Shown: positions 1,257 to 15,407, counted from the first letter of the stretch. The stretch: DNA of 15,407 nt from an uncultured Methanosarcinales archaeon (GCA_964419615.1 CAYQPU010000006.1:1-15407); one strand, 5' to 3'. The notes: generated by a model not told the origin, from the letters alone. Made by a program: numbers and translations.

Positions 1257-1811
1257 TTATAAAGGGCTGTTGTAAGCCTCTTCAAGAGCGTCACAGTATA
1301 TCATTGTTTCCCGATCAAATAATTGCAAATGTTCTTTATTTTGTTTATTGTCATAAACTAGACAAGCAACAATACCAATCATAAGTCCTAAGGTTCCACC
1401 TGTTGCGGGAAAACCAACAGCAGCTCCACCTCCCAAACCAATTAGAGTTGGGGTGAATATAGAGGCCAGATATGTTACCAGAGATTTTCCTTTTAATTTA
1501 GCAGCTTGCTTCTCTTCATAATTCTTCATCGCATTAATTACCATAGGAATGCCTTCCACAGCAGTTGTTAGCATAGATTCAAGCCTTTGGCTGCACTCAT
1601 TATCTGGACAGTCAATTCTTAACATATCTATGTGATGTCCAATTTCATCTTCAACAATCCTAACAAGTTCTTGATTTGCATTTTCAGGATTAACATAATT
1701 TTTTTTCTTAATGTTATATACATTAACTGGTTCAAGATAATCTAATATTGCTGCTGTGGCGTCTTCAGCAATATCATATACATCTCCTTGTGATAGTTTT
1801 TTGATCATCAT
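1257..1811 (-). CDS. Hypothetical protein with glycine-zipper hydrophobic hairpin (paralogue 1 of 3)
   Basis: 184 aa ORF. Helical acidic N-terminal region, then SIFTPTLIGLGGGAAVGFPATGGTLGLMIGIVACLVY, then a polar C-terminal helix. No signal peptide. TATA-like TATTTATA at 1834-1841. Start may be 1808. Confidence 0.85.
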   Translation of the reverse strand: MMIKKLSQGDVYDIAEDATAAILDYLEPVNVYNIKKKNYVNPENANQELVRIVEDEIGHHIDMLRIDCPDNECSQRLESMLTTAVEGIPMVINAMKNYEEKQAAKLKGKSLVTYLASIFTPTLIGLGGGAAVGFPATGGTLGLMIGIVACLVYDNKQNKEHLQLFDRETMIYCDALEEAYNSPL

Positions 1812-1857
1812 AATATAAGGTTACTATAAGAAGTATAAATATTTTACTACTTATTAA

Positions 1858-1870
1858 GAGAGAAAAAAGG
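1858..1870 (-). terminator. Possible oligo-T archaeal terminator after paralogue 2
   Basis: Minus strand CCTTTTTTCTCTC directly after the TAG at 1872-1874. Confidence 0.35.
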
Positions 1871-1871
1871 T

Positions 1872-2426
1872 CTAAGTATCAATATGATCGACATAAGCAT
1901 CTATCATTGGCGCCGCCATGTTACTCATTTCTTCTTTTATTTCATCTTTGTAATTGTCAATGTGACCTTCATTTGTCATAGCAAACAAGACAATGCTAAT
2001 GATTCCGCCAATTATTGTACCTACTCCATTTCCAGCAAAACCCAAATCAAAAGCAGCTCCTGCCACAATAGGTCCCAATCCGGTTATTGAATATTCTTTC
2101 CAATGCTCTTTATACCTATTTCTTATCCTATCTTCGTTTTTTAATTTGAATTTAATTAAATGATCTATGTACTCAATGCCAGCTTCTAGTGCTGCTTTGT
2201 ATCTTTGTATTGCTTCAGTTGGATAATCAATTTCAGCATCAAGTGTTCTGCTTAATCTAAATTCTAGGGATTTTGATATTACATTTTTCACATCATCCAC
2301 ATCATCGATGCCAAAATTAATTCTTCGATAGCTAAGCTGGACTACTTTTAAATAACCAGCAATATCTTTTTCCAAAATTGCATTAATATATGCACTTGCT
2401 TCTCCTGCTGTTGGTATGTCTCCCAT
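1872..2426 (-). CDS. Hypothetical protein with glycine-zipper hydrophobic hairpin (paralogue 2 of 3)
   Basis: 184 aa. HWKEYSITGLGPIVAGAAFDLGFAGNGVGTIIGGIISIVLFAM hairpin at the same position as in paralogue 1. TATA-like TTTTATAA at 2451-2458. Confidence 0.85.
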   Translation of the reverse strand: MGDIPTAGEASAYINAILEKDIAGYLKVVQLSYRRINFGIDDVDDVKNVISKSLEFRLSRTLDAEIDYPTEAIQRYKAALEAGIEYIDHLIKFKLKNEDRIRNRYKEHWKEYSITGLGPIVAGAAFDLGFAGNGVGTIIGGIISIVLFAMTNEGHIDNYKDEIKEEMSNMAAPMIDAYVDHIDT

Positions 2427-2500
2427 TATATTAAGAGGGAATTGAATTAATTATAAAAGGTTAACTACTATTTAGAAAGGAATTATTAAAAACCTAATTA

Positions 2501-3109
2501 CTAATATGAGAAGTCTTCCAACACTTTATCATAGATTTCAGTGGATAATTTGGCTAAACCACTCTTGAATCCTTGCGAATATATTTTTCTTAAGTTATCA
2601 TGCACAAAATGTAATGAAGATAAAGCACCACATGCTGTTCCAGATAATCCTGATTTAACTGCACCTAGAAAGTTGTGATCTGATGCTGAATAAAACATTG
2701 CTCCAAATATTAGGGAAACAACCCCAATGTGTATTGCATATTCTTTCCAGTGATTAGAAACTCTATGTTTAATATTCAACTCAGTCTGAGATCTTGCATC
2801 AAATATATCATCTATATAAACCACAGTCATTTTGGCAACTTCTTCTGGATCTGGCTGGATCTCGATTTCAGTCCTTCTTTCTTTAGGAGCATTTCCACTT
2901 CTTGTATAAAAATTAGCAAGAGCTTTTAACTGAAGTTCCATAAAGTTCATTTCTATTTGATGTTTAATATCGTTATAAGCACTAACTCTGTCTGTCCTTC
3001 CCTTCACATTTGTGAAGTTGTACATTTGAACGGTTTTAAATACACCTTTTAGTGTATCATCAATGACTTGTTTTACATTAATAGGATTAATCTTGTATAC
3101 ATTATCCAT
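2501..3109 (-). CDS. Hypothetical protein with hydrophobic hairpin (paralogue 3 of 3), 202 aa
   Basis: The ORF track starts at 3133, but TATA-like TTTTTAAT (3132-3139) lies 22 nt before the ATG at 3109 (MDNVYK), matching the spacing of the other two. Shares YID...E..I..R...HWKEY.I ungapped with paralogue 2. Confidence 0.85.
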   Translation of the reverse strand: MDNVYKINPINVKQVIDDTLKGVFKTVQMYNFTNVKGRTDRVSAYNDIKHQIEMNFMELQLKALANFYTRSGNAPKERRTEIEIQPDPEEVAKMTVVYIDDIFDARSQTELNIKHRVSNHWKEYAIHIGVVSLIFGAMFYSASDHNFLGAVKSGLSGTACGALSSLHFVHDNLRKIYSQGFKSGLAKLSTEIYDKVLEDFSY

Positions 3110-3177
3110 GCAAATAAAAAGAATTAGTTTCATTAAAAAAGTTTTCTAGAAAGATTATTAAATTGAATAATTAGTCA

Positions 3178-5184: not shown

Positions 5185-6129
5185 CTAGTTTTCCAATGCA
5201 ATTCTTAGTTCAGCCATATCTAGAATGAGTTCTGGAATCTGCAATAATCCACCAATTATAATAAGATCATGCTTTGAGAATTGATTGAGTTCTTTGAAGA
5301 AATCAATTCTTATGTCTTCCCTTGATTTAATAAACGCTTCAACCTTTTTCAGATCAAAACTGTAGAACAATTCATAGAATTGATCCATTACTTGGCTTAT
5401 CTGCTTTATTACTTCAACAGATTTTGGAGTCAAATGGAGTTTACTCTTAGTAATATACCTAGATGCATTTTTAATAAAATCCTCTATCTTGCTCAAGTAA
5501 AGTATAAGTGAGAAGTAGAATGAAGATTTCTTGTCATCATCGTGCCCAAATTTATTGAGTAATCTCAAACAAAAATTAATAAATTTTTTAATGTTTATAT
5601 GATGAAATTCAATTGTTTGCAAGACTTCAGAATCTTTATTCTTTATCCCTTTAATAAAAACGTTCATTTCCTCTTTAAGGAGCAAGAAAATTCTTCTTAA
5701 AACTGTATCAAATTCATCTTTTGATTCCTCTGTAATTTTTTTTATTGAAAAAGAAGTTGAAGTAGAACTGATTAGTTCTGATCCTATAAGCCTGTTAATT
5801 GTGTTATGAATAACATAGGAGACTGTTACATCACAATTTTTTCTGTGGTGAACGGACTTTATTTTATTTGTTTGAATATTTATAGTGTCATAACCAAACC
5901 TATAGAAAGCCTGAATTAAAAGAATTATGGAAGTTCGATCAAGATTACTTACATCAGAACTTACTGTCTCTTTGGCCCGGGTTGTTTGCAAATTTGAGAT
6001 TTTAAGATGGTCTCCATGATTTGTAACTTCAATTTCACTTCCCGCCTGTATACTCTGCTCATTTACCCATACTTTTGGTAAGGTTATTGTTAATGTGTTG
6101 TGGCCTTGTTTTATTACTTTTCTCTTCAT
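5185..6129 (-). CDS. AbrB/MazE-domain PhoU-family regulator (archaeal phosphate uptake regulator-like)
   Basis: N-terminal swapped-hairpin motif MKRKVIKQGHNTLTITLPKVWV...GSEIEV. Middle IILLIQAFYRFGYDTI...LIGSELIS. Helical PhoU-like repeats LRRIFLL, INIKKFINFCLRLLNK. TATA TTTATATA (6153-6160) 23 nt before the ATG. Confidence 0.85.
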   Translation of the reverse strand: MKRKVIKQGHNTLTITLPKVWVNEQSIQAGSEIEVTNHGDHLKISNLQTTRAKETVSSDVSNLDRTSIILLIQAFYRFGYDTINIQTNKIKSVHHRKNCDVTVSYVIHNTINRLIGSELISSTSTSFSIKKITEESKDEFDTVLRRIFLLLKEEMNVFIKGIKNKDSEVLQTIEFHHINIKKFINFCLRLLNKFGHDDDKKSSFYFSLILYLSKIEDFIKNASRYITKSKLHLTPKSVEVIKQISQVMDQFYELFYSFDLKKVEAFIKSREDIRIDFFKELNQFSKHDLIIIGGLLQIPELILDMAELRIALEN

Positions 6130-6145
6130 TTGACATAAGAATTAC

Positions 6146-6228
6146 GAACAAGTATATAAATTTTACGAAAAATATATTGAGATATTGAAAAATATATTCT
6201 ATATTGGGAAAGAATATATATCAATTGC
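6146..6228. promoter_or_regulatory. Divergent promoter region with four phased ~21-bp imperfect repeats
   Basis: Units start at 6146, 6167, 6187 and 6208 (GAACAAGTATATA, GAAAAATATATTG, GAAAAATATATTC, GAAAGAATATATA). The outer units contain the two divergent TATA-like boxes. Confidence 0.55.
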
Positions 6229-6247
6229 ATCCATAAAAAAGTTAATT

Positions 6248-6724
6248 ATGAACAAAAAGAAAATGCTCACTAAAAAAGATGCTTTGATTATGTCTTACTT
6301 GAGAAAAAATGCAAGAGAAAAAATAACAACTATTTCCAGAGAGACTGCCATCCCAGTTACAACAATTTATGACAGGGTAAGGGCACATGATAAAGAAATT
6401 GTATCCAAACATGTTTCTTTACTTGACTTTCAAAAGATGGGTTTTAATGCAAGGGCCAAAATCTCAATAAAAGTTAACAGAGATTCAAGAATTGATTTAC
6501 AGGAATTTTTGGTTAGCCACACTAATGTAAACTCATTATACAAAACAAATTATAAATCTGATTTTTTAGCAGATGTTGTTTTTAAAAACACAGAAGAACT
6601 GAGCAATTTTGTAGATAATCTTGAAACTAATTTTGATACTATCAGTATTCAGGTTTTCAGTATAATTAGTGAAATAAGGAAAGAAGAATTGTTCACAAGA
6701 CCAGATCATTGGGATTTGGTTTAG
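6248..6724 (+). CDS. Lrp/AsnC family transcriptional regulator (158 aa)
   Basis: HTH KDALIMSYLRKNAREKITTISRETAIPVTTIYDRV, linker LLDFQKMGF, RAM-like C-terminal domain. The ORF-track start at 6185 is TTG inside the promoter repeats; ATG 6248 (or 6263) is preferred. Confidence 0.9.
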   Translation: MNKKKMLTKKDALIMSYLRKNAREKITTISRETAIPVTTIYDRVRAHDKEIVSKHVSLLDFQKMGFNARAKISIKVNRDSRIDLQEFLVSHTNVNSLYKTNYKSDFLADVVFKNTEELSNFVDNLETNFDTISIQVFSIISEIRKEELFTRPDHWDLV

Positions 6725-6769
6725 AGGGTGTATGAAAATGAATTATGTTAGCGAGAGCTAAGGGGTAAA

Positions 6770-8026
6770 ATGGACAGACCAGATAAGGAAGATGAATTGG
6801 GCAGGGTAGGATTACTTCAGATTGGCTATACTAGTGAATGGGCACTAGCTAAATTCTTCCCAGCTATTTTTGATTTGGGCTTATCTGATTATTTTAATCT
6901 TGTAGGGGTTTGCGGGAGAGAATTAAATAAAAATGAAGCAATATCAAGACTATATTCTGAGATATCAAATAAAGTGCAAGCGATTCAGCAGGACAAAACA
7001 TGGAGATTAGGGAATATACATTCTGAGATAAGGAGTGCACTAACCTTAATAGATCACTTATCCCATGATAGAATCAATTATTACAGGTTACCTGATTTAC
7101 CTAGTGAAGGATACGATGCTGCAGTTATTCATACTTCAAATTTTACCCATTTAAATTATATAAGTGAGTTAGCACAAACTTGCAAACATATTTTGTGTGA
7201 AAAACCACTTGTAACTGTAACAGACGAGAATCATGAAGCAGATTCTGGAGAATTAGAAAGTCTTGAGCAGATAATTAAGGGCTGTAACTCAGGATTAATA
7301 TTAATGGATTCTGAGCATTATTCTGCCAAAACTGCATCTCTTGCTTTTTTTCGGAATATTGGGGATATGGTGGCAAGGTATGGGAGAATAAAAAGCATAG
7401 AAGGTCATTTACTCGAAATTGATGATCATGAAAAAATAAGAACTAGAAATTTGTTATGCAGGCAGAATAAGACAGGATTGTTATTAGACGTGGGTGTACA
7501 TTTGTTTGCTATGATCACAAGCATTGAAGGTAATATTGGGAAAATTCTGGATGCTCAATATGGAATTTTCCCAGGCAGAACCAATTCACAAAGTTATGAT
7601 GTTGAAACTTATGTTAATACTAAATTTGAGATTCATGGTCACCTTTTCCATGATAGGGCCGATGGTACGTTTACATTTGCAAAGTTCATTAAATTATTTG
7701 AAGATCCCCTTACAAAAGATGATAAAAGAGCTGTTGTGACTTTTGTTAACAAAGAATTTGAAGAAACAGAAGTGTATATTGATTTTAGCAAAGGCATAGT
7801 AACTGATTCAAATGGTTTTCTTTGGTACACAGATTCCTCATCTCAAGAATATGTTAATATTTTAAGACAGTTTGCAAATGCAATTATTAGAGGACAAGCA
7901 CCCAGAACTTGTTTTGAACACTCAATGGGAAATCTCAATGCAATATACAGAGTTTATAGAGATTTCCCTATCAAGGAAAATATAATCCAAAAGTACAGAG
8001 GAGATCCACTACCTGAACATATTTAG
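6770..8026 (+). CDS. Gfo/Idh/MocA family oxidoreductase (divergent)
   Basis: HILCEKPL and GLLLDVGVH family motifs, plus DAAVIHTSNFTH. The glycine-rich loop is degenerate. SD-like GGGGT at 6762-6766. Confidence 0.85.
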   Translation: MDRPDKEDELGRVGLLQIGYTSEWALAKFFPAIFDLGLSDYFNLVGVCGRELNKNEAISRLYSEISNKVQAIQQDKTWRLGNIHSEIRSALTLIDHLSHDRINYYRLPDLPSEGYDAAVIHTSNFTHLNYISELAQTCKHILCEKPLVTVTDENHEADSGELESLEQIIKGCNSGLILMDSEHYSAKTASLAFFRNIGDMVARYGRIKSIEGHLLEIDDHEKIRTRNLLCRQNKTGLLLDVGVHLFAMITSIEGNIGKILDAQYGIFPGRTNSQSYDVETYVNTKFEIHGHLFHDRADGTFTFAKFIKLFEDPLTKDDKRAVVTFVNKEFEETEVYIDFSKGIVTDSNGFLWYTDSSSQEYVNILRQFANAIIRGQAPRTCFEHSMGNLNAIYRVYRDFPIKENIIQKYRGDPLPEHI

Positions 8027-8047
8027 ACCAAAAAGTTTGTTGATAAA

Positions 8048-9547
8048 ATGAAATATTTTATGGGAATTGATGTTGGAACACAGGCTGTAAAAGCTGGCAT
8101 CTTTGATGAAAGAGGAGATTTGATTTCAATGTCTCAAAAAAGTTATCCCACAGCATATAGAGAAGATGGCTTTGCCAGCCAATCTCCGGGAGATTGGTGG
8201 ACTGCTTTGGAAAAGATTGTCCAGGAAAGTGTTAAAAAATCTGGATTAAAACGTAAACAAATAGTTTCTTTGTGCGTTGATGGCACAGCCCCAACAGTTT
8301 TAATGGTAGACAATCAAGGAGAGCCAATAGGAGATGCAATGTTGTGGTGTGACAGAAGAGCAACCACACAAGCAGAAAAGATTCAATCATTGGCTGATGA
8401 TGAGATCTTAAAATACTCTGGAGGAACAATATTACCAAGTTGGATATTACCCAAAGTTTTGTGGTTAAAGGAAAATGACCATAGATATACTGACTCATAC
8501 AAAATATTGGATTGTGCTGAATGGATAACTTTCAGGCTAACCAGAGAATTTACAGCATCAAGATCAACATTAATTAGAAAAGCAAATTACTTATCACATA
8601 TTGAAGGTTGGCCAGATGGTTTTTTAAAACGTATTAATCTTGAAGATTTTCTTGGAGAAAAGCTTCCAAAAAAAATACTTGGTCCTGGTAAATATGTGGG
8701 AGATTTAACAGCAGATACTGCAAAAAAAATTGGTTTGAAAAAAGGTACTTCTGTTATCCAAGGAGGTATTGATTCATATGTTGGTCTGATTGGGATGGGT
8801 GTTCATCAGGATGGACAAGTAGGTATTTTAATGGGAAGTTCAATTCCTATAGAAGCTGCATCCCATGATCTAATTTTTAGCAAGAATCTGCTAGGACCTT
8901 ACCTGGATTTGATTTACCCAGACATGTGTTTTTTAACTGGAGTTGTATCATCAGGAGGTTCATTAGCCAGGTGGGTGATTGATAATTCTCCCATGTCCTG
9001 GATGTATCACAATGCTGCTTATGATACGTTTGAAAGAAAAGCATTTGAAATTGCTCCAGGTAGTGATAATCTGCTCTGCCTCCCTTATTGGAACGGTGTA
9101 AAAGCACCAATAAAAGATTCATCTGCAAGAGGTGTTTTTTTTGGTTTGAGTCTTAGGCATAAAACAGAGCATTTGCTTAAGTCAGTCTATGAAGGGATTG
9201 CTTATGCAACAAGACAATGTTTAGATGAACTTGATAATATTGATTACAAGACAAAGGAAATAGTAATTAGTGGTGGCGGTGCGAAAAGTTTGTTATTTAG
9301 ACAAATAATGGCTGATGTTCTGGGATATGAATTGAGTTTGGCTTTTGATGAATCTTCTTTATTAGGAGGAGCAATTCTTGCTTCGGTTGGTATTGGGGAA
9401 CATGAATCAATTCAAGATGGTATAATTAATATGACTATACCCAAAAAGAAAATAGAGCCAGATATGGGGAATCATGATATTTATTCCCATTTCTATGAGA
9501 GTTATAAAAAAATTTACCCAGCATTAAAGGATGTGATGCATGCATGA
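8048..9547 (+). CDS. FGGY-family carbohydrate kinase (xylulo-/ribulo-/sedoheptulokinase-like; substrate unknown)
   Basis: GIDVGTQAVK, DGTAPT...AMLWCDRRA, GGIDSYVG, LPYWNGVKAP...ARGVFFGL, SVYEGIAY, SGGGAKS. Confidence 0.95.
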   Translation: MKYFMGIDVGTQAVKAGIFDERGDLISMSQKSYPTAYREDGFASQSPGDWWTALEKIVQESVKKSGLKRKQIVSLCVDGTAPTVLMVDNQGEPIGDAMLWCDRRATTQAEKIQSLADDEILKYSGGTILPSWILPKVLWLKENDHRYTDSYKILDCAEWITFRLTREFTASRSTLIRKANYLSHIEGWPDGFLKRINLEDFLGEKLPKKILGPGKYVGDLTADTAKKIGLKKGTSVIQGGIDSYVGLIGMGVHQDGQVGILMGSSIPIEAASHDLIFSKNLLGPYLDLIYPDMCFLTGVVSSGGSLARWVIDNSPMSWMYHNAAYDTFERKAFEIAPGSDNLLCLPYWNGVKAPIKDSSARGVFFGLSLRHKTEHLLKSVYEGIAYATRQCLDELDNIDYKTKEIVISGGGAKSLLFRQIMADVLGYELSLAFDESSLLGGAILASVGIGEHESIQDGIINMTIPKKKIEPDMGNHDIYSHFYESYKKIYPALKDVMHA

Positions 9548-10266
9548 TAATCGACCTAACTTATGAGATTCATGATGACATGCACAAGTATCCCAGTGAC
9601 CCGAAGTTTAAGACTTTAGAAAGAATAACAGCAAAATTACCAGATGGAAAAGTAATTTCAGGTTATTCAACTCATAAAATGAGATCGCATCATGGGACAC
9701 ATATTGATGCACCAGCGCACAAGATTGCTAATGGCAAAACAATTGGCCAATATAGTATTGCTAATTTCATTAACAGATGTCAATTAATTGATTTGGTTCA
9801 TCTTAATATTCCTGATAGAAAAATAAAAGGGATTACAATTCAGGATTTGTACGGACGAGTTGCTCCAAATATTGTTTTGCAAAGAGGCGTAAATTCCTTA
9901 ATTTTCAATACAGGGTATTTGGACAGGATATCTTCTAAGACTGCAGAAAAAAGAAGAAAAGATGTGGAAAAAGGATTTACATTTTTTACAAATGAGGCAG
10001 CAGAATATGTTGCCTCAATTCCTAATCTTAGAATAGTTGGACTAGATTCATTTTCATTTGACAGATCAGGAAGCAATAGTGAGTCTCATCTTTTTTTCTT
10101 GTCAGAAGATATTCTTTTGCTTGAGACTGTTGCCAATCTTGCATATTTATCCTCAATGATTGAGGATTCTATTTTCACATTGGTCTGTGCACCAATACTA
10201 TATCAAAATAATGATGCAGCCCAGACAAGAGCCTATGCAATAGTTGGAGGAGAACTCCATGGCTAA
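9544..10266 (+). CDS. Cyclase-family (kynurenine formamidase-like) metal-dependent hydrolase
   Basis: SHHGTHIDAPAH fits HxGTHxDxPxH. Also MIIDLT start, GLDSFSFD and LLETVANL. ATGA overlap with the kinase. Confidence 0.92.
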   Translation: MIIDLTYEIHDDMHKYPSDPKFKTLERITAKLPDGKVISGYSTHKMRSHHGTHIDAPAHKIANGKTIGQYSIANFINRCQLIDLVHLNIPDRKIKGITIQDLYGRVAPNIVLQRGVNSLIFNTGYLDRISSKTAEKRRKDVEKGFTFFTNEAAEYVASIPNLRIVGLDSFSFDRSGSNSESHLFFLSEDILLLETVANLAYLSSMIEDSIFTLVCAPILYQNNDAAQTRAYAIVGGELHG

Positions 10267-10921
10267 ACAAGTGTTAAAAACACTTAGTAACAGAATTGAC
10301 CATAGAACCTATACCGAGACAAAATCAACCTTAAGTAATTCAGGTAATTTTAGTAATTCTGATAGTTCTGATATCCCAAATAACACAACAAGTCAGAAGA
10401 ACATAAAGCTGAATTTAGGCTGCGGTGACAGAGTCTATAATGGCTATGTGAATATAGATTGTGTTTCGCTCCCTGGTGTAGATTTGGTTATTAATCTTGA
10501 AAACCCTTTGCCTTTTGAAGACAATTCAGTATCAGAGATTAGAGCAGAGCATATTCTTGAACACATTACTAACTTCATGCAATTAATGGAGGAGATTCAT
10601 AGAGTGTCTAGGCATGGTGCCAGGTTATATGTGCTTGCACCTTATTATAAATATGAAGGTACTTATCGCGATCCAACACATGTAAGATCTTTTACAGAAC
10701 ATTCTTTTGACTATTTCCAGGATAGAGTAAAATTTTCCCATATTTCAAATGCCAGATTCAAGGTTCACAAAGTTAGAAAGAGAGTTAGATTTTTGAGCAG
10801 TGTAAGAAATAAGCAAAAAAAGATTATGAAATTAATTCCTGAGTTACTAAGACCATTACTTGATATCTTTTTTTGGAATATTTACTCAGAAGTTGAATAT
10901 GAAATGAATGTGATAAAATGA
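10259..10921 (+). CDS. Class I SAM-dependent methyltransferase with Ser/Asn/Thr-rich N-terminal extension (220 aa)
   Basis: KLNLGCG motif I, LPFEDNSV, HILEHI...EIHRV, DPTHVRSFTEHSFDYF. SD GGAGG (10246-10250) 8 nt before ATG 10259; the ORF-track start at 10244 is TTG. Confidence 0.92.
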   Translation: MAKQVLKTLSNRIDHRTYTETKSTLSNSGNFSNSDSSDIPNNTTSQKNIKLNLGCGDRVYNGYVNIDCVSLPGVDLVINLENPLPFEDNSVSEIRAEHILEHITNFMQLMEEIHRVSRHGARLYVLAPYYKYEGTYRDPTHVRSFTEHSFDYFQDRVKFSHISNARFKVHKVRKRVRFLSSVRNKQKKIMKLIPELLRPLLDIFFWNIYSEVEYEMNVIK

Positions 10922-12336
10922 AGGTAGCAGGAATATATCCTCAGCAATTAGTTAGTGATCACAAATTACAGCATGCAGTAAGTGAGCCTTATGGACTATC
11001 AAAAATCCTAGCTATTGCACAAGAAGAAGGCCATGAAATTGAGTTGTTTATTCCAAATAACTCTTTTGAGAAATATATTAATTCAATAAAACAATTCAAT
11101 CCTGAAGTGGCATGCTATTCTATTTACACCTGCCAATATCCTTTGGCAAAAAAAATTGGTCAAGAACTTAAAAAATTCAATTCAAAGATAATTAATATTG
11201 CAGGTAATCGCTATCCAACATATCTTAAAGGAGATTTAGAGCAGCCATTTGATATATCTGTAATGGGAGAAGGTGAGGAAACTTTTTATGATCTTTTAAA
11301 TGTAATTAATAAGGGAGGGATATTAAATCAAGTTAAAGGTATAATCTATAAGAACAAAGCTGGCGTAGTAATAAATAAGCCAAGACAAAGAATAAAAAAT
11401 CTTGACAAATACCCAAATGCAATTAGATTTAAGAAAATTCTCTCACAAATTTATCGTTCTGTATCAATTCCCACCTTATCAAAAAACCCCCACTATGCAA
11501 TCATGGAATACAGCCGGGGCTGCTTGGGTGTTTGCAATTTTTGTGATAATGCTAACTTTTGGATCAAGAAAAGTACTAAAGTGGTTCACAGGTCAGCAAA
11601 AAAAGTAGTTGATGAAATGAAACAAATCCAAAAATCATGCAAACCAGTAATATTCTATTTCATGGATCTTAATTTTACTGCTTATCCAGATAAAGTTTGG
11701 GAGTTGCTCGAAGAAATGGAGACCCAGGGATTAGATGCATCTTGGTACTGCATGAGTAATATTTCTAGTGCAGAAAATCAAACTAGTCTGCTAAAAGCAA
11801 TGAGAGAGAAGGGATGTTATAAGATAGCCTTTGGTGTTGAGTCCACAAAAGATGAGAATTTGAAAAAGATGAATAAAAGTTTTGATGGTGAGATGCTTGA
11901 TGTAAATAAAACTAAAAAAGTTCTCAGGCAAACTGCAGATCTTGGGTTTGTTAATCAAGGATTTTACATAATTGGATTTGAATGGGATTCACAAGACTCA
12001 ATTTTAGCTCAGGCAAAAGGTTTATTGGATTTAGATATTCACCTACTAAATATTGGTATTTACACACCCATCCCACTAAGTGCTTACTATCCCAGATATA
12101 AGAAAATGGGTATTGAAGAAGATTTGTCAAAGCACGACAGAGGACACCTTGTTTTCAAACATCCCAATGGACTTACTGATCAAAGCATTAGAAAACTCCA
12201 GCAAGACATACACTCCAACTATTACAATACACCTGAATACAAAGCAAAGGTTAGGAAACTAACCCAAATTATTCCAGAATTACGTCAAAGTTTTGAGGAA
12301 TATTTTCAGCACATAGGAGAGGAGGTGATAATATGA
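10918..12336 (+). CDS. Cobalamin-binding radical SAM enzyme
   Basis: CxxxCxxC = CLGVCNFC within YSRGCLGVCNFC. N-terminal B12-binding domain (EPYGL...NPEVACYSIYT...MGEGEETF). Also FYFMDLNFT, IAFGVES and FYIIGF. ATGA overlaps on both sides. Confidence 0.93.
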   Translation: MKVAGIYPQQLVSDHKLQHAVSEPYGLSKILAIAQEEGHEIELFIPNNSFEKYINSIKQFNPEVACYSIYTCQYPLAKKIGQELKKFNSKIINIAGNRYPTYLKGDLEQPFDISVMGEGEETFYDLLNVINKGGILNQVKGIIYKNKAGVVINKPRQRIKNLDKYPNAIRFKKILSQIYRSVSIPTLSKNPHYAIMEYSRGCLGVCNFCDNANFWIKKSTKVVHRSAKKVVDEMKQIQKSCKPVIFYFMDLNFTAYPDKVWELLEEMETQGLDASWYCMSNISSAENQTSLLKAMREKGCYKIAFGVESTKDENLKKMNKSFDGEMLDVNKTKKVLRQTADLGFVNQGFYIIGFEWDSQDSILAQAKGLLDLDIHLLNIGIYTPIPLSAYYPRYKKMGIEEDLSKHDRGHLVFKHPNGLTDQSIRKLQQDIHSNYYNTPEYKAKVRKLTQIIPELRQSFEEYFQHIGEEVII

Positions 12337-13097
12337 AATTAAAGAGGAAAACAGCTGTTGTTACAGGTGCTTCAAGAGGAATAGGAAAAGCAATAGCAAT
12401 AAAACTCGCTGAACAGAACTTAAGAGTTGCGTTAATATCCCGAAACAGTAAAGATCTTAGAAAAGTGATTGGTGAATTAAAAAATCCATCTGTGCACAGA
12501 GGATATCAATGTGATGTCAGAGACAAAAAACAGGTTGTTAAGACTTTTGCTGACATTTATGAAAGATTTGGATCAGTGGAAGTTCTGGTTAACAATGCAG
12601 GTATTAATTCTAGAAAAACAATATCCTTTGCTTGCAAGAACATAAGTGATGTACTAAATCAGAGTCTTAAAGGATGGCAGGATGAATTAGACACAAACCT
12701 TACTGGAGCTTACTTATGTTCTTATGTAGCAGCCCATTACATGTTAAAAGGGGGGAAAGGTAGTATTGTAAATATTTCTTCAATAAAAGGTAGAGAAGCA
12801 ACCAGCAGTCCAGGTTATGGTGCATCCAAAGCAGGTGTTATTAAACTTACAAAAGACTTTGCTAAAACATTGGCCCCACATAGTATTAGAGTTAATTGTG
12901 TATTGCCTGGTTTTATTGATACAGGCCTAACAGCTGAACTTTCTACTGAAAAAAAGAGCATGTATCACAGGATGATTCCTCTTGGAAGATTTGGGAAAGT
13001 TGAGGAGGTGGCTGATACTGTTATGTTTCTGGCATCCTCTTCTTCGTCTTATATTACTGGTGCTTGGATTATAGCTGATGGAGGTTATTTAGTTTAA
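12333..13097 (+). CDS. Classical SDR oxidoreductase (FabG-like, NADP(H) fingerprint)
   Basis: TGASRGIG, SRN after beta2, NNAG, catalytic SS...YGASK, RVNCVLPGFIDT, YITG...ADGG. Strong SD GAGGAGGTGAT. Confidence 0.95.
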   Translation: MKLKRKTAVVTGASRGIGKAIAIKLAEQNLRVALISRNSKDLRKVIGELKNPSVHRGYQCDVRDKKQVVKTFADIYERFGSVEVLVNNAGINSRKTISFACKNISDVLNQSLKGWQDELDTNLTGAYLCSYVAAHYMLKGGKGSIVNISSIKGREATSSPGYGASKAGVIKLTKDFAKTLAPHSIRVNCVLPGFIDTGLTAELSTEKKSMYHRMIPLGRFGKVEEVADTVMFLASSSSSYITGAWIIADGGYLV

Positions 13098-13098
13098 G

Positions 13099-13980
13099 AT
13101 GGTTTTAATGGAGGAACTGGATAAAAAAGTATTTACTAGTTTAAAACAAATTTATAATCCAAATGCATTGCAAGGAGTCAGAACAGTAGTCACCGGAAGT
13201 TGTGAAGGAATAGGTTTACAAACAGCTTATAATCTTGCAGAGCTAGGTGCTCAAGTTGGAATTTTACATTACAATCCAGAGAAAGCAATATCAACCGCAG
13301 CTCAGCTAAATGGTTTTTTAGATGGAGATTATGCAATTCCATTTACTTCAGATGTTAGTGATTTTACTCAATTAAAAGAATGTTTCAATGATATATCAGA
13401 TGTGTTTGATGGAGCAATAGATGTTTTCATAAATAATGCTGGACGAAACTATCCATGCAGAATTGAGGATTTATTAGCTGAAGATAATAATATTAAACAA
13501 GTGGAAGAGATGATTAGGATTAATCAGTTAGGCACAATTTACTGTGCAAATCTTGCTTATCCATTGTTACTTAATGGAATAAATCCTTCGTTTACAATAA
13601 TTGGTTCGTGCGCATCACAAGGTTCTGAAGGTCAAGGAGGTTATGCAAGTACAAAAGCTGCTTTGCGAGGGTTAGTCGGAACGCTTGTGAAAGAATGGGT
13701 AAAAACAGATACTAAACAAGCTGTGAGAGTAAACTTGATTGAAGGTGATTATTTTGAACCAACAGGTATCCGAAGTCAGGAATATATCTCAGCTTTGGCA
13801 TATTCCAGAAGAACCTCAATTAGTAATGTTTCAAATGATGTTGTAGCCAGAACTAAAGTTCCTGTTAAAAGGGAAGGAAGATTAGTTGAAATTGCTGAGG
13901 CAGCTGTGTATCTGACCTTAGCCAAATATGTTAACGGTAATGTGCTAACCATTTCTGGAGGTAAAACTGTAAGACTATGA
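13099..13980 (+). CDS. SDR oxidoreductase, sorbitol-6-phosphate 2-dehydrogenase (SorD-type)-like, copy A
   Basis: TGSCEGIG, NNAG, INQLG, GSEGQGGYASTK, EPTGIRSQEYISALAYSR and SGGKT end recall the SorD-type sorbitol-6-P dehydrogenase pattern (GSEGQSxYAATK...EATGLRT..YEEALAYTR...GGK). Recognised from memory, not searched. Confidence 0.85.
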   Translation: MVLMEELDKKVFTSLKQIYNPNALQGVRTVVTGSCEGIGLQTAYNLAELGAQVGILHYNPEKAISTAAQLNGFLDGDYAIPFTSDVSDFTQLKECFNDISDVFDGAIDVFINNAGRNYPCRIEDLLAEDNNIKQVEEMIRINQLGTIYCANLAYPLLLNGINPSFTIIGSCASQGSEGQGGYASTKAALRGLVGTLVKEWVKTDTKQAVRVNLIEGDYFEPTGIRSQEYISALAYSRRTSISNVSNDVVARTKVPVKREGRLVEIAEAAVYLTLAKYVNGNVLTISGGKTVRL

Positions 13981-14828
13981 AAGAACCAAAACATTCCATA
14001 TTTTATAAAACAAAATTACTCGATGGGAAAAAGACTGTTGTGACTGGTGCAGGCAGAGGAATAGGAAAACAAGTGGCATTTACTTTGGTAGAGCAAGGCG
14101 CTCAAGTTGTGATATTAGATCAGGATCACGATCTCGCTAAATCCACTGCAAATTTAATTAACTATGAATTTGGATTAAATATGGCTTTGCCAGTTAAATG
14201 CGATATTAGTAATACTGAAAGTCTTGAGCATGCTTTTTCCGTAATTTCAGATTTTTACAAGGGCAGTTTAGATATTTTTCTTAACAGTGCCGGCATTAAT
14301 GCTCCTTGCAGAATTGAAAAAATATCAGCTCCTGAACATATGAAAAAGCTAAATAAGATGATAGAGGTAAATCAAATCTCTGCTTTCTCTTGTGCAGCTT
14401 TTGCATATCCTTTACTGCTCAAAGGACAAAACCCTTGTTTTATTATAATGGGTTCATGTGCATCACAAGGTTCAGAGGGTCAAGGTGGTTATGCAAGTAC
14501 AAAAGGAGCATTAAGATCATTAATGGGCACCTTGGTTAAAGAATGGACTGCGACAGAGTATAAGCCTGCAGTCAGAATTAATCTAATTGAACCAGATTAT
14601 ATGGAAGCTACTAGCCTAAGATCTGCCAAGTATTTGGAAGCTCTTGCAGATTCAAGATTAACTACAGTTGATAAAGTTGCAAATGATGTAGTGGCAAGAA
14701 TTAAAGTTCCTATGAAAAGGGAAGGAAGATTGATTGAAATTGCTGAAGCTGTTGTGTATCTGGCTTTAGCTGAATATGTTAATGGTAATGTTTTGATAAT
14801 TTCTGGTGGAAAGACTGTGAGGTTGTAA
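13977..14828 (+). CDS. SDR oxidoreductase, sorbitol-6-phosphate 2-dehydrogenase-like, copy B (NAD fingerprint)
   Basis: TGAGRGIG, Asp at the end of beta2 (VILDQD), NSAG, YASTK, EATSLRSAKYLEALADSR. Close paralogue of copy A. ATGA overlap. Confidence 0.85.
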   Translation: MKEPKHSIFYKTKLLDGKKTVVTGAGRGIGKQVAFTLVEQGAQVVILDQDHDLAKSTANLINYEFGLNMALPVKCDISNTESLEHAFSVISDFYKGSLDIFLNSAGINAPCRIEKISAPEHMKKLNKMIEVNQISAFSCAAFAYPLLLKGQNPCFIIMGSCASQGSEGQGGYASTKGALRSLMGTLVKEWTATEYKPAVRINLIEPDYMEATSLRSAKYLEALADSRLTTVDKVANDVVARIKVPMKREGRLIEIAEAVVYLALAEYVNGNVLIISGGKTVRL

Positions 14829-14890
14829 GATTGAGAATGAAAATTGTTATTGTTGATGCTGGAAGATATATTAGATAAAATGAGAGAAAA

Positions 14891-15268
14891 ATGAGTATAA
14901 AAAACACAGAATTCAGACCATGGGGTTCTTTTACTTTATTTGCTCTTAATGAGAAATGTACTGTAAAAATCTTAAAAGTCAAAGAACAACTTTCACTACA
15001 ATCACACAAGAATAGAGAAGAATTTTGGCATGTTATTGATGGAAAAGTTGAAGTATTAAAAGGACCAGTAACAGAAAACATAGATGAATTAGAGGCGAAC
15101 CTTGCTTCAAGTATCCTGACATCCGGAGAAAGCATAATTATTCCAAAAAATACAGCACATACTTTAAAAAATTTAAATGTTAAGAGCTCAAGAGTTCTGG
15201 AAATTTCTTATGGTCGTTTTGATGAAAGTGATGAAATTAGATACAAGGATTTGTACGGTAGATCCTGA
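14891..15268 (+). CDS. Cupin protein, stand-alone type II mannose-6-phosphate isomerase domain
   Basis: RPWG, LSLQSHKNREEFW, IPKNTAHTLKN, LEISYG.FDESD.IRY.D.YGR. Confidence 0.88.
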   Translation: MSIKNTEFRPWGSFTLFALNEKCTVKILKVKEQLSLQSHKNREEFWHVIDGKVEVLKGPVTENIDELEANLASSILTSGESIIIPKNTAHTLKNLNVKSSRVLEISYGRFDESDEIRYKDLYGRS

Positions 15269-15284
15269 CAAAAACGGAGGTAAA

Positions 15285-15407
15285 ATGGTTAAAAAGTTAA
15301 GATTCGGCAAAAGAAGTTTTGAACCCAACATTAGGATGTTATATGATTTAAAGGATGTGTTGTATGAGCAAGAGAATACTATTTCTACACCTAATAGTGT
15401 TGCTTAC
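15285..15407 (+). CDS. Probable cupin-type archaeal glucose-6-phosphate isomerase, N-terminal 41 codons (truncated at edge)
   Basis: Hand translation MVKKLRFGKRSFEPNIRMLYDLKDVLYEQENTISTPNSVAY resembles the N-terminus of cupin PGI-family proteins (L.FG....P.IR.L.DMK.VLY). SD GGAGGT at 15276-15281. Only a fragment is visible. Confidence 0.6.
   Translation, partial: MVKKLRFGKRSFEPNIRMLYDLKDVLYEQENTISTPNSVAY

Follow-up and report, generated by a model that had tools for sequence, protein, structure and literature searches.

A rare modular gene cassette on an island in a DPANN archaeal genome and its possible role in sugar-phosphate or sugar-acid tailoring

The window, a stretch of 15,407 nucleotides (C6:1-15407), is part of a 54.5-kb contig and carries an operon of 11 same-strand and mostly overlapping genes (Table 1), which, according to the coordinates of the open reading frames, extends from 6248 to C6:16002. 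This end is that of the gene of a cupin-type phosphoglucose isomerase (PGI), which closes just beyond the window and is interrupted by a scaffold gap of 10 Ns (C6:15409-15418). The co-orientation of the genes and every junction described in an earlier note on this DNA are reproduced by these coordinates, including the ATGA overlap of the kinase and hydrolase genes at 9544, the 8-nt overlap between the hydrolase gene and that of the methyltransferase with its ATG at 10259, the overlaps of the radical SAM (10918), SDR1 (12333) and SDR3 (13977) genes with the respective preceding gene, and the 1-nt gap between SDR1 and SDR2 (13098). The boundaries given there, 6248-15407, leave out the divergent regulator, which is the most conserved partner of the cassette, and the end of the PGI gene. 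Most of its family labels were confirmed by Pfam and NCBIfam, namely Gfo/Idh/MocA, FGGY, Methyltransf_11, B12-binding and Radical_SAM, the three SDRs, the PMI-type cupin and the cupin PGI, the assignment to Lrp being weaker. Since the operon enzymes all score below equivalog cut-offs, any substrates assigned to them are guesses. Table 1 distinguishes core genes, which recur in other genomes and which we assign to two modules A and B, from accessories specific to the window.

Table 1. Features of the locus, with positions counted from the first nucleotide of the window.
Feature	Position	Strand	Basis
AbrB-PhoU-like regulator	5185..6129	-	Pfam AbrB match and AF2/Foldseek
Putative divergent control region	6130..6247	.	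sequence reading; inferred function
Lrp/AsnC-like regulator	6248..6724	+	Pfam scores just below cut-offs
Gfo/Idh/MocA-fold sugar dehydrogenase; core, module B	6770..8026	+	PF01408, AF2 model
FGGY sugar kinase; window-specific accessory	8048..9547	+	FGGY_N, FGGY_C
PF04199 'cyclase'-family metal-dependent hydrolase; core, module B	9544..10266	+	Pfam, motif
Class I SAM methyltransferase; core, module A	10259..10921	+	Methyltransf_11, motifs
Class B (B12-binding domain) radical SAM enzyme; core, module A	10918..12336	+	PF02310, PF04055
FabG-like classical SDR (SDR1); core, module A	12333..13097	+	adh_short_C2, motifs
SDR2, tandem paralogue of SDR3; window-specific accessory	13099..13980	+	adh_short
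SDR3; window-specific accessory	13977..14828	+	adh_short_C2
Single-domain cupin, type II PMI C-terminal family; window-specific accessory	14891..15268	+	PF01050
Cupin-type phosphoglucose isomerase gene, 5' part	15286..15407 (to C6:16002)	+	PF06560

The divergent regulator combines an N-terminus of the AbrB/SpoVT type (Pfam MazE_antitoxin/AbrB, residues 6-44) with a helical C-terminal domain, which in an AF2 model (pLDDT 83.8) appears PhoU-like. PhoU or PhoU-like proteins account for 12 of the 16 first ranks listed by Foldseek, with TM values of 0.39-0.65 and weak E-values of about 2e-3. The protein neighbours the cassette divergently in at least 20 of 27 lineages, and there is a correlation (r=0.58) between its pairwise distances and the distances measured for the radical SAM enzyme. 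The adjoining region, which contains the direct repeat GAAAAATATATT with copies at 6167-6178 and 6187-6198, probably serves as control region. In the Lrp/AsnC-like protein encoded by the first gene of the operon, AsnC_trans_reg (23.4 bits) and HTH_AsnC (18.2 bits) both score slightly below the Pfam cut-offs, and the Lrp equivalogs of NCBIfam reach a maximum of 41 bits compared to cut-offs of at least 190. Its orthologues occupy the equivalent position in L009, L010, L012 and L056 and an Lrp head, as described for the operon in the earlier note, is found in only 4 of the 27 lineages.

Module A starts with the methyltransferase (Methyltransf_11, 25.9 bits), whose motifs LNLGCG, NID and EHILEHI are conserved, the mean column identity being 52 %. 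Its coupling to the radical SAM gene is not confined to the window, as the two open reading frames usually abut or overlap also elsewhere. The radical SAM enzyme, with invariant C202, C206 and C209, contains a B12-binding domain scoring above the Pfam cut-off (PF02310, 45.9 bits) followed by a PF04055 match (35.6 bits), and may bind cobalamin and catalyze a methylation. It reaches no equivalog cut-off in NCBIfam (BchE 126/481, HpnJ 103/578 and AprD4 30/500 bits), and the best PDB matches of its family profile are AprD4 (1.6e-22, radical SAM core) and TokK (2.2e-22). The family contains about 80 clusters of 39-53 % identity, with DPANN archaea prevailing among those with a named source. SDR1 (adh_short_C2, 205 bits) shows the motifs TGASRGIG, NNAG and YGASK and its orthologues (45-60 % identity) directly follow the radical SAM gene in at least 20 of 27 lineages. 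This order, together with the match to AprD4 as best solved structure, would agree with an anaerobic catabolic route, where an AprD4-like diol dehydratase and SDR1 as AprD3-like reductase deoxygenate a sugar acid in an Edd-independent, Entner-Doudoroff-like pathway fed by kinases and isomerases, and the presence of kinases (FGGY here, ROK elsewhere) and of two regulators would suit an inducible operon of this kind. We regard such a route as improbable, in light of the low score for the AprD4 equivalog and the B12-binding domain, since AprD4 binds no cobalamin (PMC12931638). It would also leave the tightly coupled methyltransferase without explanation, a search of the window's genome (G000) for both types of KDPG or KDG aldolase gave no match, and no transporter is contained in the archaeal loci examined.

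Within module B, the Gfo-like dehydrogenase (PF01408, 32.9 bits) contains the conserved residues EKP, EHY and D..H and a GxGxxG loop that is degenerate in the main clade. The best matches of its AF2 model (pLDDT 91.7) are aldose-aldose oxidoreductase, levoglucosan dehydrogenase, GFOR and scyllo-inositol dehydrogenase. The fold thus resembles C1-oxidising aldose dehydrogenases, although other members of the Gfo/Idh/MocA family attack free or NDP-bound sugars at C2 or C3, and the C1 oxidation of a sugar phosphate is a putative activity. The hydrolase (PF04199, 71 bits) has retained the metal motif HxGTHxDxPxH, with HHGTHIDAPAH being invariant, and is a candidate lactonase or esterase of a family with proven esterase and dienelactone-hydrolase (lactone-hydrolase) members (PMC5341072). 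The isomerase of the module is in other genomes represented by F5, a new cupin distantly related to cupin PGI (94 % probability and E 1e-7 in a profile alignment), and of the 32 long proteins of the F5 family, 24 are fusions with the Gfo-like protein. F5 was not found in the window's genome, where a true cupin PGI (PF06560, 126 bits on the part following the gap) is located at its place. The fusions, the alignment and this replacement all point to a coupling of isomerase and dehydrogenase. In just one lineage (L017), which contains neither the PF04199 hydrolase nor F5, the Gfo gene is followed by that of a genuine Pgl (142 bits, cut-off 124), and in just two others a genuine Gnd (335 bits, cut-off 271) is present, flanked by hydrolase and F5 in L009 and located ahead of F5 in L041. 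Together with the fold of the dehydrogenase and the characterized PF04199 members, these insertions suggest a conversion via lactone and aldonate.

The remaining enzymes are particular to the window. The FGGY kinase (FGGY_N 128 bits, FGGY_C 107 bits; best equivalog XylB, 271 bits with a cut-off of 380) is absent from all other cassette loci examined and has no orthologue in the 60 relatives searched, with one match at 27 %. SDR2 (adh_short, 107 bits; glycine motif TGSCEGIG) and SDR3 (adh_short_C2, 113 bits) are 56 % identical, and the motifs TGAGRGIG and ILDQD of the latter suggest the use of NAD. Their previous description as SorD-type is weak, considering that PRK06171, the best NCBIfam match of SDR2, scores 122 bits for this protein and 141 bits for SDR3 at a cut-off of 304. 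The PMI cupin (PF01050, 60 bits) attains just 53 of 373 bits for the GMP_PMI equivalog, and neither it nor SDR2 or SDR3 accompanies the cassette at any other locus examined.

Cassettes of this type are rare and were identified in about 27 distinct lineages of Woese-, Pace- and Aenigmatarchaeota and two Bacillota MAGs. Their recurring core consists of the divergent regulator, the Gfo/Idh/MocA protein (19 lineages), the hydrolase (14), F5 (17), the methyltransferase (21), the B12 radical SAM enzyme and the FabG-like SDR, with regulator and SDR1 each detected in 20 of the 27 lineages, all numbers being lower bounds because many loci are incomplete. The homologues thus do co-occur elsewhere, as the initial proposal implied, but not its ten genes as one unit, since only the Gfo, hydrolase, methyltransferase, radical SAM and SDR1 genes recur, with PGI replacing F5. 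While pairwise distances correlate within module A (r 0.5-0.66), they tie module B only weakly to it (r=0.07 for radical SAM and Gfo), and module A is found alone in Aenigmatarchaeota-type and bacterial loci, as if two unrelated small modules without common pathway had been juxtaposed by chance or regulation in compact genomes. We consider this very improbable, since 19 of the 27 lineages combine both modules, and do so in several gene orders, one regulator heads whichever is first and the entire set has moved into the window's genome together. That the modules belong together is indicated by their interleaving in L010, L012 and L056 (Gfo-MT-rSAM-SDR1-(hydrolase)-rSAM2-F5) and their tight packing in L007, L014, L016 and L017. 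The pair of methyltransferase and radical SAM genes is found without module B in L003, L018, L033, L043 and L060 (with L033 and L060 being short contigs), which, as their tight coupling, would be expected if both proteins acted on SAM itself in a VioH/VioG- or methyl-ACC-like manner. They would then form a non-proteinogenic amino acid, whereas the sugar genes would be unrelated or process a nucleoside by-product, and PMC7277169 describes a precedent for the C-methylation of SAM by a B12 radical SAM enzyme. This appears highly improbable in view of the ordinary SAM-binding motifs of the methyltransferase, for which no similarity to AZE or ACC synthases was noticed, of SDR1 and the sugar enzymes, which would be left unexplained, and of the absence of any tRNA-editing or peptide-assembly partner.

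The neighbourhood in other genomes consistently reflects hexose-phosphate and nucleotide-sugar metabolism, in line with the sugar context suggested earlier. Genes near the cassette include a GalE-like one (8 lineages) and, in several lineages, those of PGM, NTP-transferase, GHMP kinase and ROK kinase. RpiB and PGI adjoin the cassette in some loci, and FBPase and TIM follow it immediately in L049. In the bacterial L003, the nearest relative, the methyltransferase-radical SAM pair is located beside an MFS transporter, a HAD phosphatase, a GT2 glycosyltransferase and an epimerase.

In the window's genome, the cassette resides on an island of about 14 kb (about C6:5080-19250), which is absent from genomes of the same genus and family. 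There, the S6e gene directly adjoins that of the AAA_18 kinase (G001, same genus; G002, same family). Orthologues of the radical SAM enzyme were found in none of 60 relatives and in one of 400 genomes of the class, and cupin PGI has no clear match in 30 relatives. In a quick tree, the radical SAM enzyme is sister to a bacterial sequence and the methyltransferase closest to DPANN proteins, a difference in placement that suggests the island may be mosaic. The rightward extension proposed in the earlier note revealed no nucleotidyltransferase, glycosyltransferase, aminotransferase or exporter, the first two and the exporter being absent from the entire island. The next gene of the island contains a faint IMPase-like stretch (E 0.011), which, with HpnJ as second-best NCBIfam match of the radical SAM enzyme and inositol dehydrogenases among the Gfo-fold relatives, could hint at a cyclitol or a ring contraction (HpnJ-, Cds- or OxsB-like), as previously envisaged, yielding a carbocyclic polyol that would serve as compatible solute or in the head group of a lipid. 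None of the scores comes near its cut-off, the IMPase match does not reach the Pfam threshold and the neighbours elsewhere are hexose-phosphate and nucleotide-sugar rather than inositol or lipid genes; we found nothing specific for this chemistry and judge it clearly improbable.

The gene content of the host is relevant for a further alternative, a non-canonical oxidative pentose-phosphate branch, where the functions of the missing Zwf and Pgl would be taken over by cupin PGI together with a Gfo-type G6P dehydrogenase and a lactonase of PF04199, providing 6-phosphogluconate, NADPH and pentoses, with module A as co-regulated passenger. The window's genome contains Tkt, Tal and Rpe but, according to Pfam, no match to Zwf (PF02781), Pgl or RpiA, and its only Gnd candidate is a 431-aa frame that weakly matches NAD_binding_2. 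Canonical Zwf is missing in 11 of 14 cassette genomes, and the Pgl and Gnd genes within cassettes and the adjoining RpiB and PGI would fit as well. However, Zwf is present in the other three, Gnd to consume 6-phosphogluconate is missing in 10 of the 14, the module genes are interleaved in several lineages, and the rarity of the cassette and its location on an island would be odd for central metabolism. We thus regard this branch as unlikely.

Collectively, we tentatively favour, at somewhat less than even probability, a horizontally acquired island in a tiny DPANN archaeon of the Woesearchaeota, with an undescribed sugar-phosphate or sugar-acid tailoring cassette, in which modules B and A would act in succession. 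Module B, comprising the cupin isomerase, the Gfo/Idh/MocA dehydrogenase and the metal hydrolase, would receive a ketose or aldose phosphate, most likely F6P/G6P, oxidise its C1 and open the resulting lactone, which would give an aldonate phosphate, for instance 6-phosphogluconate. The enzymes of module A, which is co-inherited with the AbrB-PhoU-like regulator, would then carry out a C-methylation or dehydration as radical step, a redox step at a keto or hydroxyl group and a methylation. The resulting modified sugar or sugar acid would, judged by the neighbours in other genomes, probably enter nucleotide-sugar and surface-glycan metabolism, and the FGGY kinase, the two extra SDRs, the PMI cupin and PGI may constitute a local funnel of hexoses and polyols towards the F6P/G6P node. 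The modified-sugar pathway proposed in the earlier note is thus retained in its recurring sugar-phosphate and radical SAM core, though not in the unity of the full set, the cyclitol or the ring contraction. Its novelty is supported by our searches of the full-text literature and by a review on B12 radical SAM enzymes from 2026, neither of which revealed a described pathway with this gene set.

The pairing of a class I methyltransferase with a B12-domain radical SAM enzyme is shared with BchM/BchE, the Mg-protoporphyrin methyltransferase and anaerobic cyclase, and BchE is the top NCBIfam match, although at a quarter of its cut-off. There are no tetrapyrrole genes, and members with a named source are assigned to non-phototrophic DPANN archaea. 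The automatic JGI name 'anaerobic Mg-protoporphyrin IX monomethyl ester cyclase' of some family members is an over-annotation. The oxidative pentose-phosphate pathway (PGI, Zwf, Pgl, Gnd) resembles module B in the proposed order of isomerase, 1-dehydrogenase and lactone hydrolase and in the Pgl and Gnd genes of L017, L009 and L041, but the isomerase of the cassette is a cupin, its dehydrogenase is of the Gfo/Idh/MocA fold instead of Zwf and its hydrolase belongs to PF04199 instead of Pgl, most cassette genomes are devoid of Gnd and the set always travels with the radical SAM module. A similarity to the NDP-D-glycero-D-manno-heptose pathway (GmhA, HddA, GmhB, HddC) and to the tailoring of heptoses for surface glycans lies in the GmhA-, HddA-, GmhB- and HddC-like genes next to the methyltransferase-radical SAM pair of L003 and in pairs of HddA-like GHMP kinase and NTP-transferase flanking the cassette in L015 and L016. 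These matches are top for the protein or domain yet below equivalog cut-offs, the window's island contains no such genes, and we know of no B12 radical SAM step in heptose pathways. Finally, the class B enzymes of aminoglycoside clusters, among them the C-methylases GenK and GenD1 and the dehydratase-reductase pair AprD4/AprD3, share with the window's enzyme an N-terminal Rossmann/B12-type domain, the CxxxCxxC core and a sugar-modifying cluster, and the SDR directly following the radical SAM gene of the cassette parallels the pairing of AprD4 with AprD3. They differ in that the scores for KedN5, PhpK, HpnR and others are, as for AprD4, far below the cut-offs, and that the cassette is embedded in a DPANN sugar-phosphate and central-metabolism context rather than an antibiotic cluster and includes a dedicated, translationally coupled class I methyltransferase.

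The eleven genes starting with the Lrp/AsnC-like regulator constitute a real operon, whose co-oriented arrangement, as described in the earlier note, and gene junctions were reproduced by ORF calling. In order, they encode the regulator, a Gfo/Idh/MocA-like protein of 418 residues, an FGGY kinase, a hydrolase of the PF04199 'cyclase' family, a methyltransferase (Methyltransf_11), a B12-binding radical SAM protein (rSAM), the FabG-like short-chain dehydrogenase SDR1, the related proteins SDR2 and SDR3, which share 56 % identity, a small PMI-type cupin and a cupin-type PGI, whose gene is interrupted by a 10-N scaffold gap. Two ORFs of 118 and 77 residues that share sequence with the PMI and PGI genes in a different frame are without family match and probably spurious. 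The operon is located on a 54.5-kb contig (C6, whose numbering is that of the window) in an assembly of 1.48 Mb (G000, 99 % complete, 33 % G+C), and the suspected DPANN-like nature of the genome was borne out by the nearest relatives of its eIF2-gamma, which are named Candidatus Woesearchaeota and are up to 83 % identical. Extending the contig rightwards, as suggested in the earlier note, revealed no glycosyltransferase, nucleotidyltransferase, aminotransferase or exporter; the operon stops at the PGI gene and is followed by the gene of a 1002-residue protein, nucleoside and nucleotide kinases and a ThyA-MtrA fusion.

Coordinates of features in the window, on its contig C6 and in other loci
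Feature	Position	Strand
Three tandem paralogous ORFs	1257-3133	-
Loss of homology with same-genus genome G001	near C6:5078	
Direct repeat GAAAAATATATT, first copy	6167-6178	
Direct repeat GAAAAATATATT, second copy	6187-6198	
Operon, Lrp/AsnC-like gene to cupin-type PGI gene	6248 to C6:16002	+
ORF of 118 aa	14779-15135	-
ORF of 77 aa	15177-15407	+
Cupin-type PGI gene	15286 to C6:16002	+
10-N scaffold gap	C6:15409-15418	
Gene of 1002-aa protein	L001:2245-5253 (= C6:16245-19253)	
AbrB-type paralogue in G000	C6:29128-29874	
AbrB-type paralogue in G000	C23	
AbrB-type paralogue in G000	C1	
Second divergent AbrB-PhoU-like/Lrp-like pair in G000	C21:4388-5853	
Second B12-rSAM, locus L010	L010:12930-14585	
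Second B12-rSAM, locus L009	L009:11476-13080	
Second B12-rSAM, locus L012	L012:5640-	
Second B12-rSAM, locus L056	L056:12346-	

The operon forms part of an island. In G001 and in G002, a genome of the same family, the genes for MutS, eIF2-gamma and S6e are directly followed by those for an AAA_18 kinase, dNK, ThyA-MtrA and Tmk. In G000, S6e and the AAA_18 kinase are separated by about 14 kb that comprise the genes from a divergent AbrB-PhoU-like regulator through PGI and the 1002-residue protein at the right end. Orthologues of the rSAM were found in none of 60 relatives and in one of 400 other genomes of the class, those of the FGGY kinase in none of the 60, with a single match of 27 % identity, and the cupin PGI had no clear and one borderline match in 30 relatives; these tallies include the unpublished, 65 % complete genome G006, which showed only a paralogous rSAM match and no match to the FGGY kinase or cupin PGI. 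A gain in G000 is more parsimonious than repeated loss. GC content does not shift at the island borders (0.334 vs 0.343), no direct repeat flanking the island exceeds 9 nt, and the window (to 15407) is free of tRNA genes. The 1002-residue protein, whose gene overlaps with its stop the convergent AAA_18 kinase gene, contains a protein-kinase domain (residues 726-979) and shows faint matches to Inositol_P (E 0.011, below cut-off) and TPR; no homologue was found in five genomes of the family and its N-terminus had no match in a phmmer search against PDB sequences. Three tandem ORFs between MutS and eIF2-gamma, encoding paralogues of 184, 184 and 210 residues, are missing in G001 and G002, where both flanking genes are adjacent, and they thus mark a second lineage-specific insertion beside the island.

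The Lrp/AsnC-like protein shows matches to both domains of its family in the right order, with scores just under the cut-offs (23.4 bits against 25 and, for HTH_AsnC, 18.2 against 27), and the AbrB-type protein has a helical, PhoU-like C-terminal domain, with PhoU or PhoU-like proteins occupying 12 of the 16 first listed Foldseek ranks at weak E-values. Elsewhere in G000, another AbrB-PhoU-like gene is paired divergently with an Lrp-like gene, at 27 % and 40 % identity, respectively, and there are three further AbrB-type paralogues. In the divergent promoter region between the two regulator genes of the window resides the exact direct repeat GAAAAATATATT, whose copies are 20 nt apart and which, as judged from its sequence, may serve as an operator or represent two TATA elements.

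Part of this gene set recurs as a cassette in other organisms. Using an alignment of the rSAM family, we sampled 16 genome loci and at least 30 metagenome loci, in which ORFs were called and proteins clustered, and collapsed near-identical loci to 27 lineages. The rSAM is accompanied by the methyltransferase in 21, by the divergent AbrB-type protein and by SDR1 in 20 each, by the Gfo-like protein in 19, by a cupin family termed F5 in 17 and by the PF04199 hydrolase in 14 of these lineages, numbers that are lower bounds since many contigs are truncated. Lrp accompanies the cassette in four lineages, and no cassette locus other than that of the window was found to contain the FGGY kinase, SDR2, SDR3 or the PMI cupin. 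The gene order is variable, with Gfo-hydrolase-F5 preceding methyltransferase-rSAM-SDR1 in L007, L014 and L037, following it in L004, L006 and L008, and both being interleaved in L010, L012 and L056 (Gfo-methyltransferase-rSAM-SDR1-(hydrolase)-rSAM2-F5), and the Aenigmatarchaeota-type loci contain methyltransferase-rSAM-SDR1 alone with the regulator. The six-gene core spans L007:1243-7007 and L014:3153-8955. The cassette was therefore treated as two modules, A (methyltransferase, rSAM, SDR1 and AbrB-PhoU-like regulator) and B (Gfo-like protein, hydrolase and F5). Pairwise-distance matrices are correlated within module A (r 0.5-0.66) and weakly between modules. The cassette is conserved but rare and consists of two modules, with links among its parts by fusion and neighbourhood, and we give very little credence to the possibility that these genes are unrelated neighbours.

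In module A, the CxxxCxxC motif of the rSAM (C202, C206 and C209) is invariant across 32 sequences, and the protein's matches to Radical_SAM (PF04055, 35.6 bits against a cut-off of 29.5) and, in an N-terminal Rossmann domain, to the B12-binding family PF02310 (45.9 against 32.1) place it by motif and domain in the class B (cobalamin-dependent) superfamily, where its use of cobalamin is predicted, a similar domain in AprD4 and ArsL being devoid of cobalamin binding (PMC12931638). The protein scores below every named B12-rSAM equivalog of NCBIfam (BchE 126 bits against 481, HpnJ 103 against 578, HpnR 77 against 650, AprD4 30 against 500) and likewise below PhpK (65 against 600) and BzaD (33 against 450). 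Its family is compact, with about 80 clusters at 39-53 % identity and named members mostly from Pace-, Woese-, Aenigmat- and Nanoarchaeota, and a search of the ESM Atlas retrieved nothing beyond generic B12-rSAM clusters. The loci L052, L054 and L057, with 31-35 % identity to the rSAM, occur in the context of branched-chain amino-acid ABC transporters and were set aside as paralogues. A second B12-rSAM of about 530-550 residues (BchE 189 bits against 481) is found in the cassette of four loci from three lineages, and G000 encodes further B12-rSAM paralogues on contigs C1, C9, C62 and C2.

Among solved structures, the family profile matches best, at about 2e-22, to AprD4 in the radical SAM core and to TokK in the B12 domain (2.2e-22). 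The former resemblance is in line with a catabolic deoxygenation akin to that of AprD4/AprD3, which would proceed in an Entner-Doudoroff-like manner, a reading that is weakened by the result that no KD(P)G aldolase, of either the Eda or the DHDPS type, was found in G000, and which we regard as improbable. The methyltransferase contains ordinary class I SAM-binding motifs and has no informative relative, including no phmmer match against PDB sequences; that module A would serve a SAM-derived amino-acid chemistry is very improbable. A role of the methyltransferase and the PF04199 hydrolase as a BioC/BioH-like pair, placing and removing a methyl ester, is unsupported, as their presence does not co-vary across loci. 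SDR1 as a substitute of Gnd was rejected, as the L009 genome carries both. SDR2 and SDR3 contain classical SDR motifs; the SorD-type label (sorbitol-6-phosphate dehydrogenase, SorD/SrlD) used in the earlier note is weak, with 122 and 141 bits against the cut-off of 304 of PRK06171.

In module B, the Gfo-like protein shows the two-domain fold of Gfo/Idh/MocA proteins (Rossmann plus alpha/beta sheet domain), including the EKP lysine and the D..H pair. Its model (pLDDT 91.7) matches many family members with a Foldseek probability of 1.0 and TM-scores of 0.6-0.78, best among them aldose-aldose oxidoreductase, levoglucosan dehydrogenase, GFOR and scyllo-inositol dehydrogenase, and it scores 32.9 bits to PF01408 (cut-off 24), with E144-K145-P146 and D240 invariant and H244 nearly so. 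The last of these structural matches would suit a pathway leading to a cyclitol or a ring contraction, which we regard as very improbable. The canonical GxGxxG loop is degenerate (GYTSEWA) in the main clade, including the window, and GxGxx is kept only in a divergent sub-clade (L007, L013, L016 and L017); phmmer against PDB sequences gave no match. A divergent Zwf, as considered from its EKP and DHY-like motifs, was rejected, since the top structural matches listed all belong to the Gfo/Idh/MocA family, and neither Zwf domain (G6PD_N, G6PD_C) was matched in Pfam.

F5 has no Pfam match and carries a GHxH...QE...G cupin motif (H89, H91 and E100 kept), and its profile aligns to that of cupin PGI with 94 % probability in hhalign. 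It was not found in G000, where a true cupin PGI (PF06560, 126 bits against 20.7, with a GHxH...E motif) closes the operon, and we read both as functional counterparts. The family is tiny, with 147 representatives among 1.84 billion proteins, and in 24 of its 32 long members F5 is fused to a Gfo-like domain (E 1e-4 to 5e-13), as detected by an HMM from the DPANN Gfo-like alignment, which independently links an isomerase-like cupin to the dehydrogenase; P0299 is one natural fusion of this kind. Five fusions of about 1200 residues (P0287, P0294, P0302, P0314 and P0333) contain an extra C-terminal region of about 500 residues that matches no cassette profile, and P0316 an additional N-terminal region of about 450 residues. 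The hydrolase (71 bits to PF04199) has an HxGTHxDxPxH metal motif, H49/H50-G-T-H53-x-D55-x-P57-x-H59, that is invariant in 12 sequences, and it falls below the arylformamidase equivalog (56 bits against 223); among the members of its family are proven esterases and a dienelactone hydrolase (PMC5341072). The FGGY kinase scores well over the cut-offs of FGGY_N and FGGY_C and below those of the substrate-specific equivalogs, with 271 bits against 380 for XylB and 231 against 428 for ribulokinase.

Genes within or touching the cassette are indicative of the hexose-phosphate node and of sugar activation. A true 6-phosphogluconolactonase directly follows the Gfo-like gene in L017, which is without hydrolase and F5, and a true decarboxylating 6-phosphogluconate dehydrogenase is found between hydrolase and F5 in L009 and ahead of F5 in L041. 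RpiB and a cupin PGI occur in L011, and in L049 the cassette is followed by a class V FBPase and TIM. Eight lineages have a GalE-like epimerase/dehydratase, and several have PGM, NTP-transferases and ROK and GHMP kinases. A rival reading, which we consider unlikely, is a plain non-canonical branch of the oxidative pentose-phosphate pathway. Canonical Zwf was detected in 3 and Gnd in 4 of 14 cassette genomes, and G000 has no match for Zwf (PF02781), Pgl or RpiA and a weak NAD_binding_2 match as sole Gnd candidate; it does carry transketolase, transaldolase and Rpe. The rSAM closest to that of the window (53 % identity, grouped together in a quick tree) is found in L003 (JAEZCE010000054.1), a 'Bacillota bacterium' MAG contig with an MCP chemotaxis gene, where methyltransferase and rSAM are followed by an MFS transporter, a HAD phosphatase, a GT2 glycosyltransferase, an NTP-transferase/GmhB-like fusion, an HddA-like kinase, a GmhA-like isomerase and an epimerase. 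The presence of this closest rSAM on a contig with a chemotaxis gene and a heptose-like nucleotide-sugar/GT2 cluster suggests that the genes were transferred between bacteria and DPANN archaea or that the contig was binned wrongly.

We propose that module B would convert a ketose phosphate via an aldose phosphate and its lactone to an aldonate phosphate, in analogy to PGI, G6P dehydrogenase and lactonase, and that module A would then carry out a radical step, a redox step and a methylation. The kinase, SDRs and PMI specific to the window may channel other hexoses or polyols to F6P and G6P, and the product would enter nucleotide-sugar and glycan metabolism. Taken as a whole, this scheme has somewhat less than an even chance of being correct. 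More speculative, and rather unlikely, is a new B12-rSAM reaction on a central sugar or aldonate phosphate. The cupin isomerase and Gfo dehydrogenase, fused or coupled, would for example supply a 6-phosphogluconate-type intermediate that is then C-methylated or deoxygenated by a radical route. This would yield a new branched or deoxy sugar, displayed at the surface and spread by gene transfer among DPANN archaea and a few bacteria.

For DPANN archaea, whose genomes are very small and which rely on hosts, an island of 14 kb that encodes eleven enzymes and two regulators constitutes a large investment; surface sugars are prime candidates for the attachment to a host. If module B makes 6-phosphogluconate, it would replace Zwf and Pgl in archaea by non-orthologous enzymes. 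As a compact and clonable unit, the cassette poses three enzyme problems: a B12-domain rSAM family none of whose close relatives is characterised, a new family of cupins that frequently occur as fusions with the partner dehydrogenase, and a PF04199 hydrolase within a sugar-related gene set. The literature searches brought up no described pathway that combines these genes. A 2026 review of B12 rSAM enzymes covers methylation, ring contraction, formation and expansion, and thioether formation; the words 'sugar' and 'archaea' gave no hit when its text was searched (PMC12931638). The interest in the cassette rests mainly on its being compact, mobile and directly testable. Its parts fall into known superfamilies, and class B rSAM enzymes have precedents in sugar clusters.
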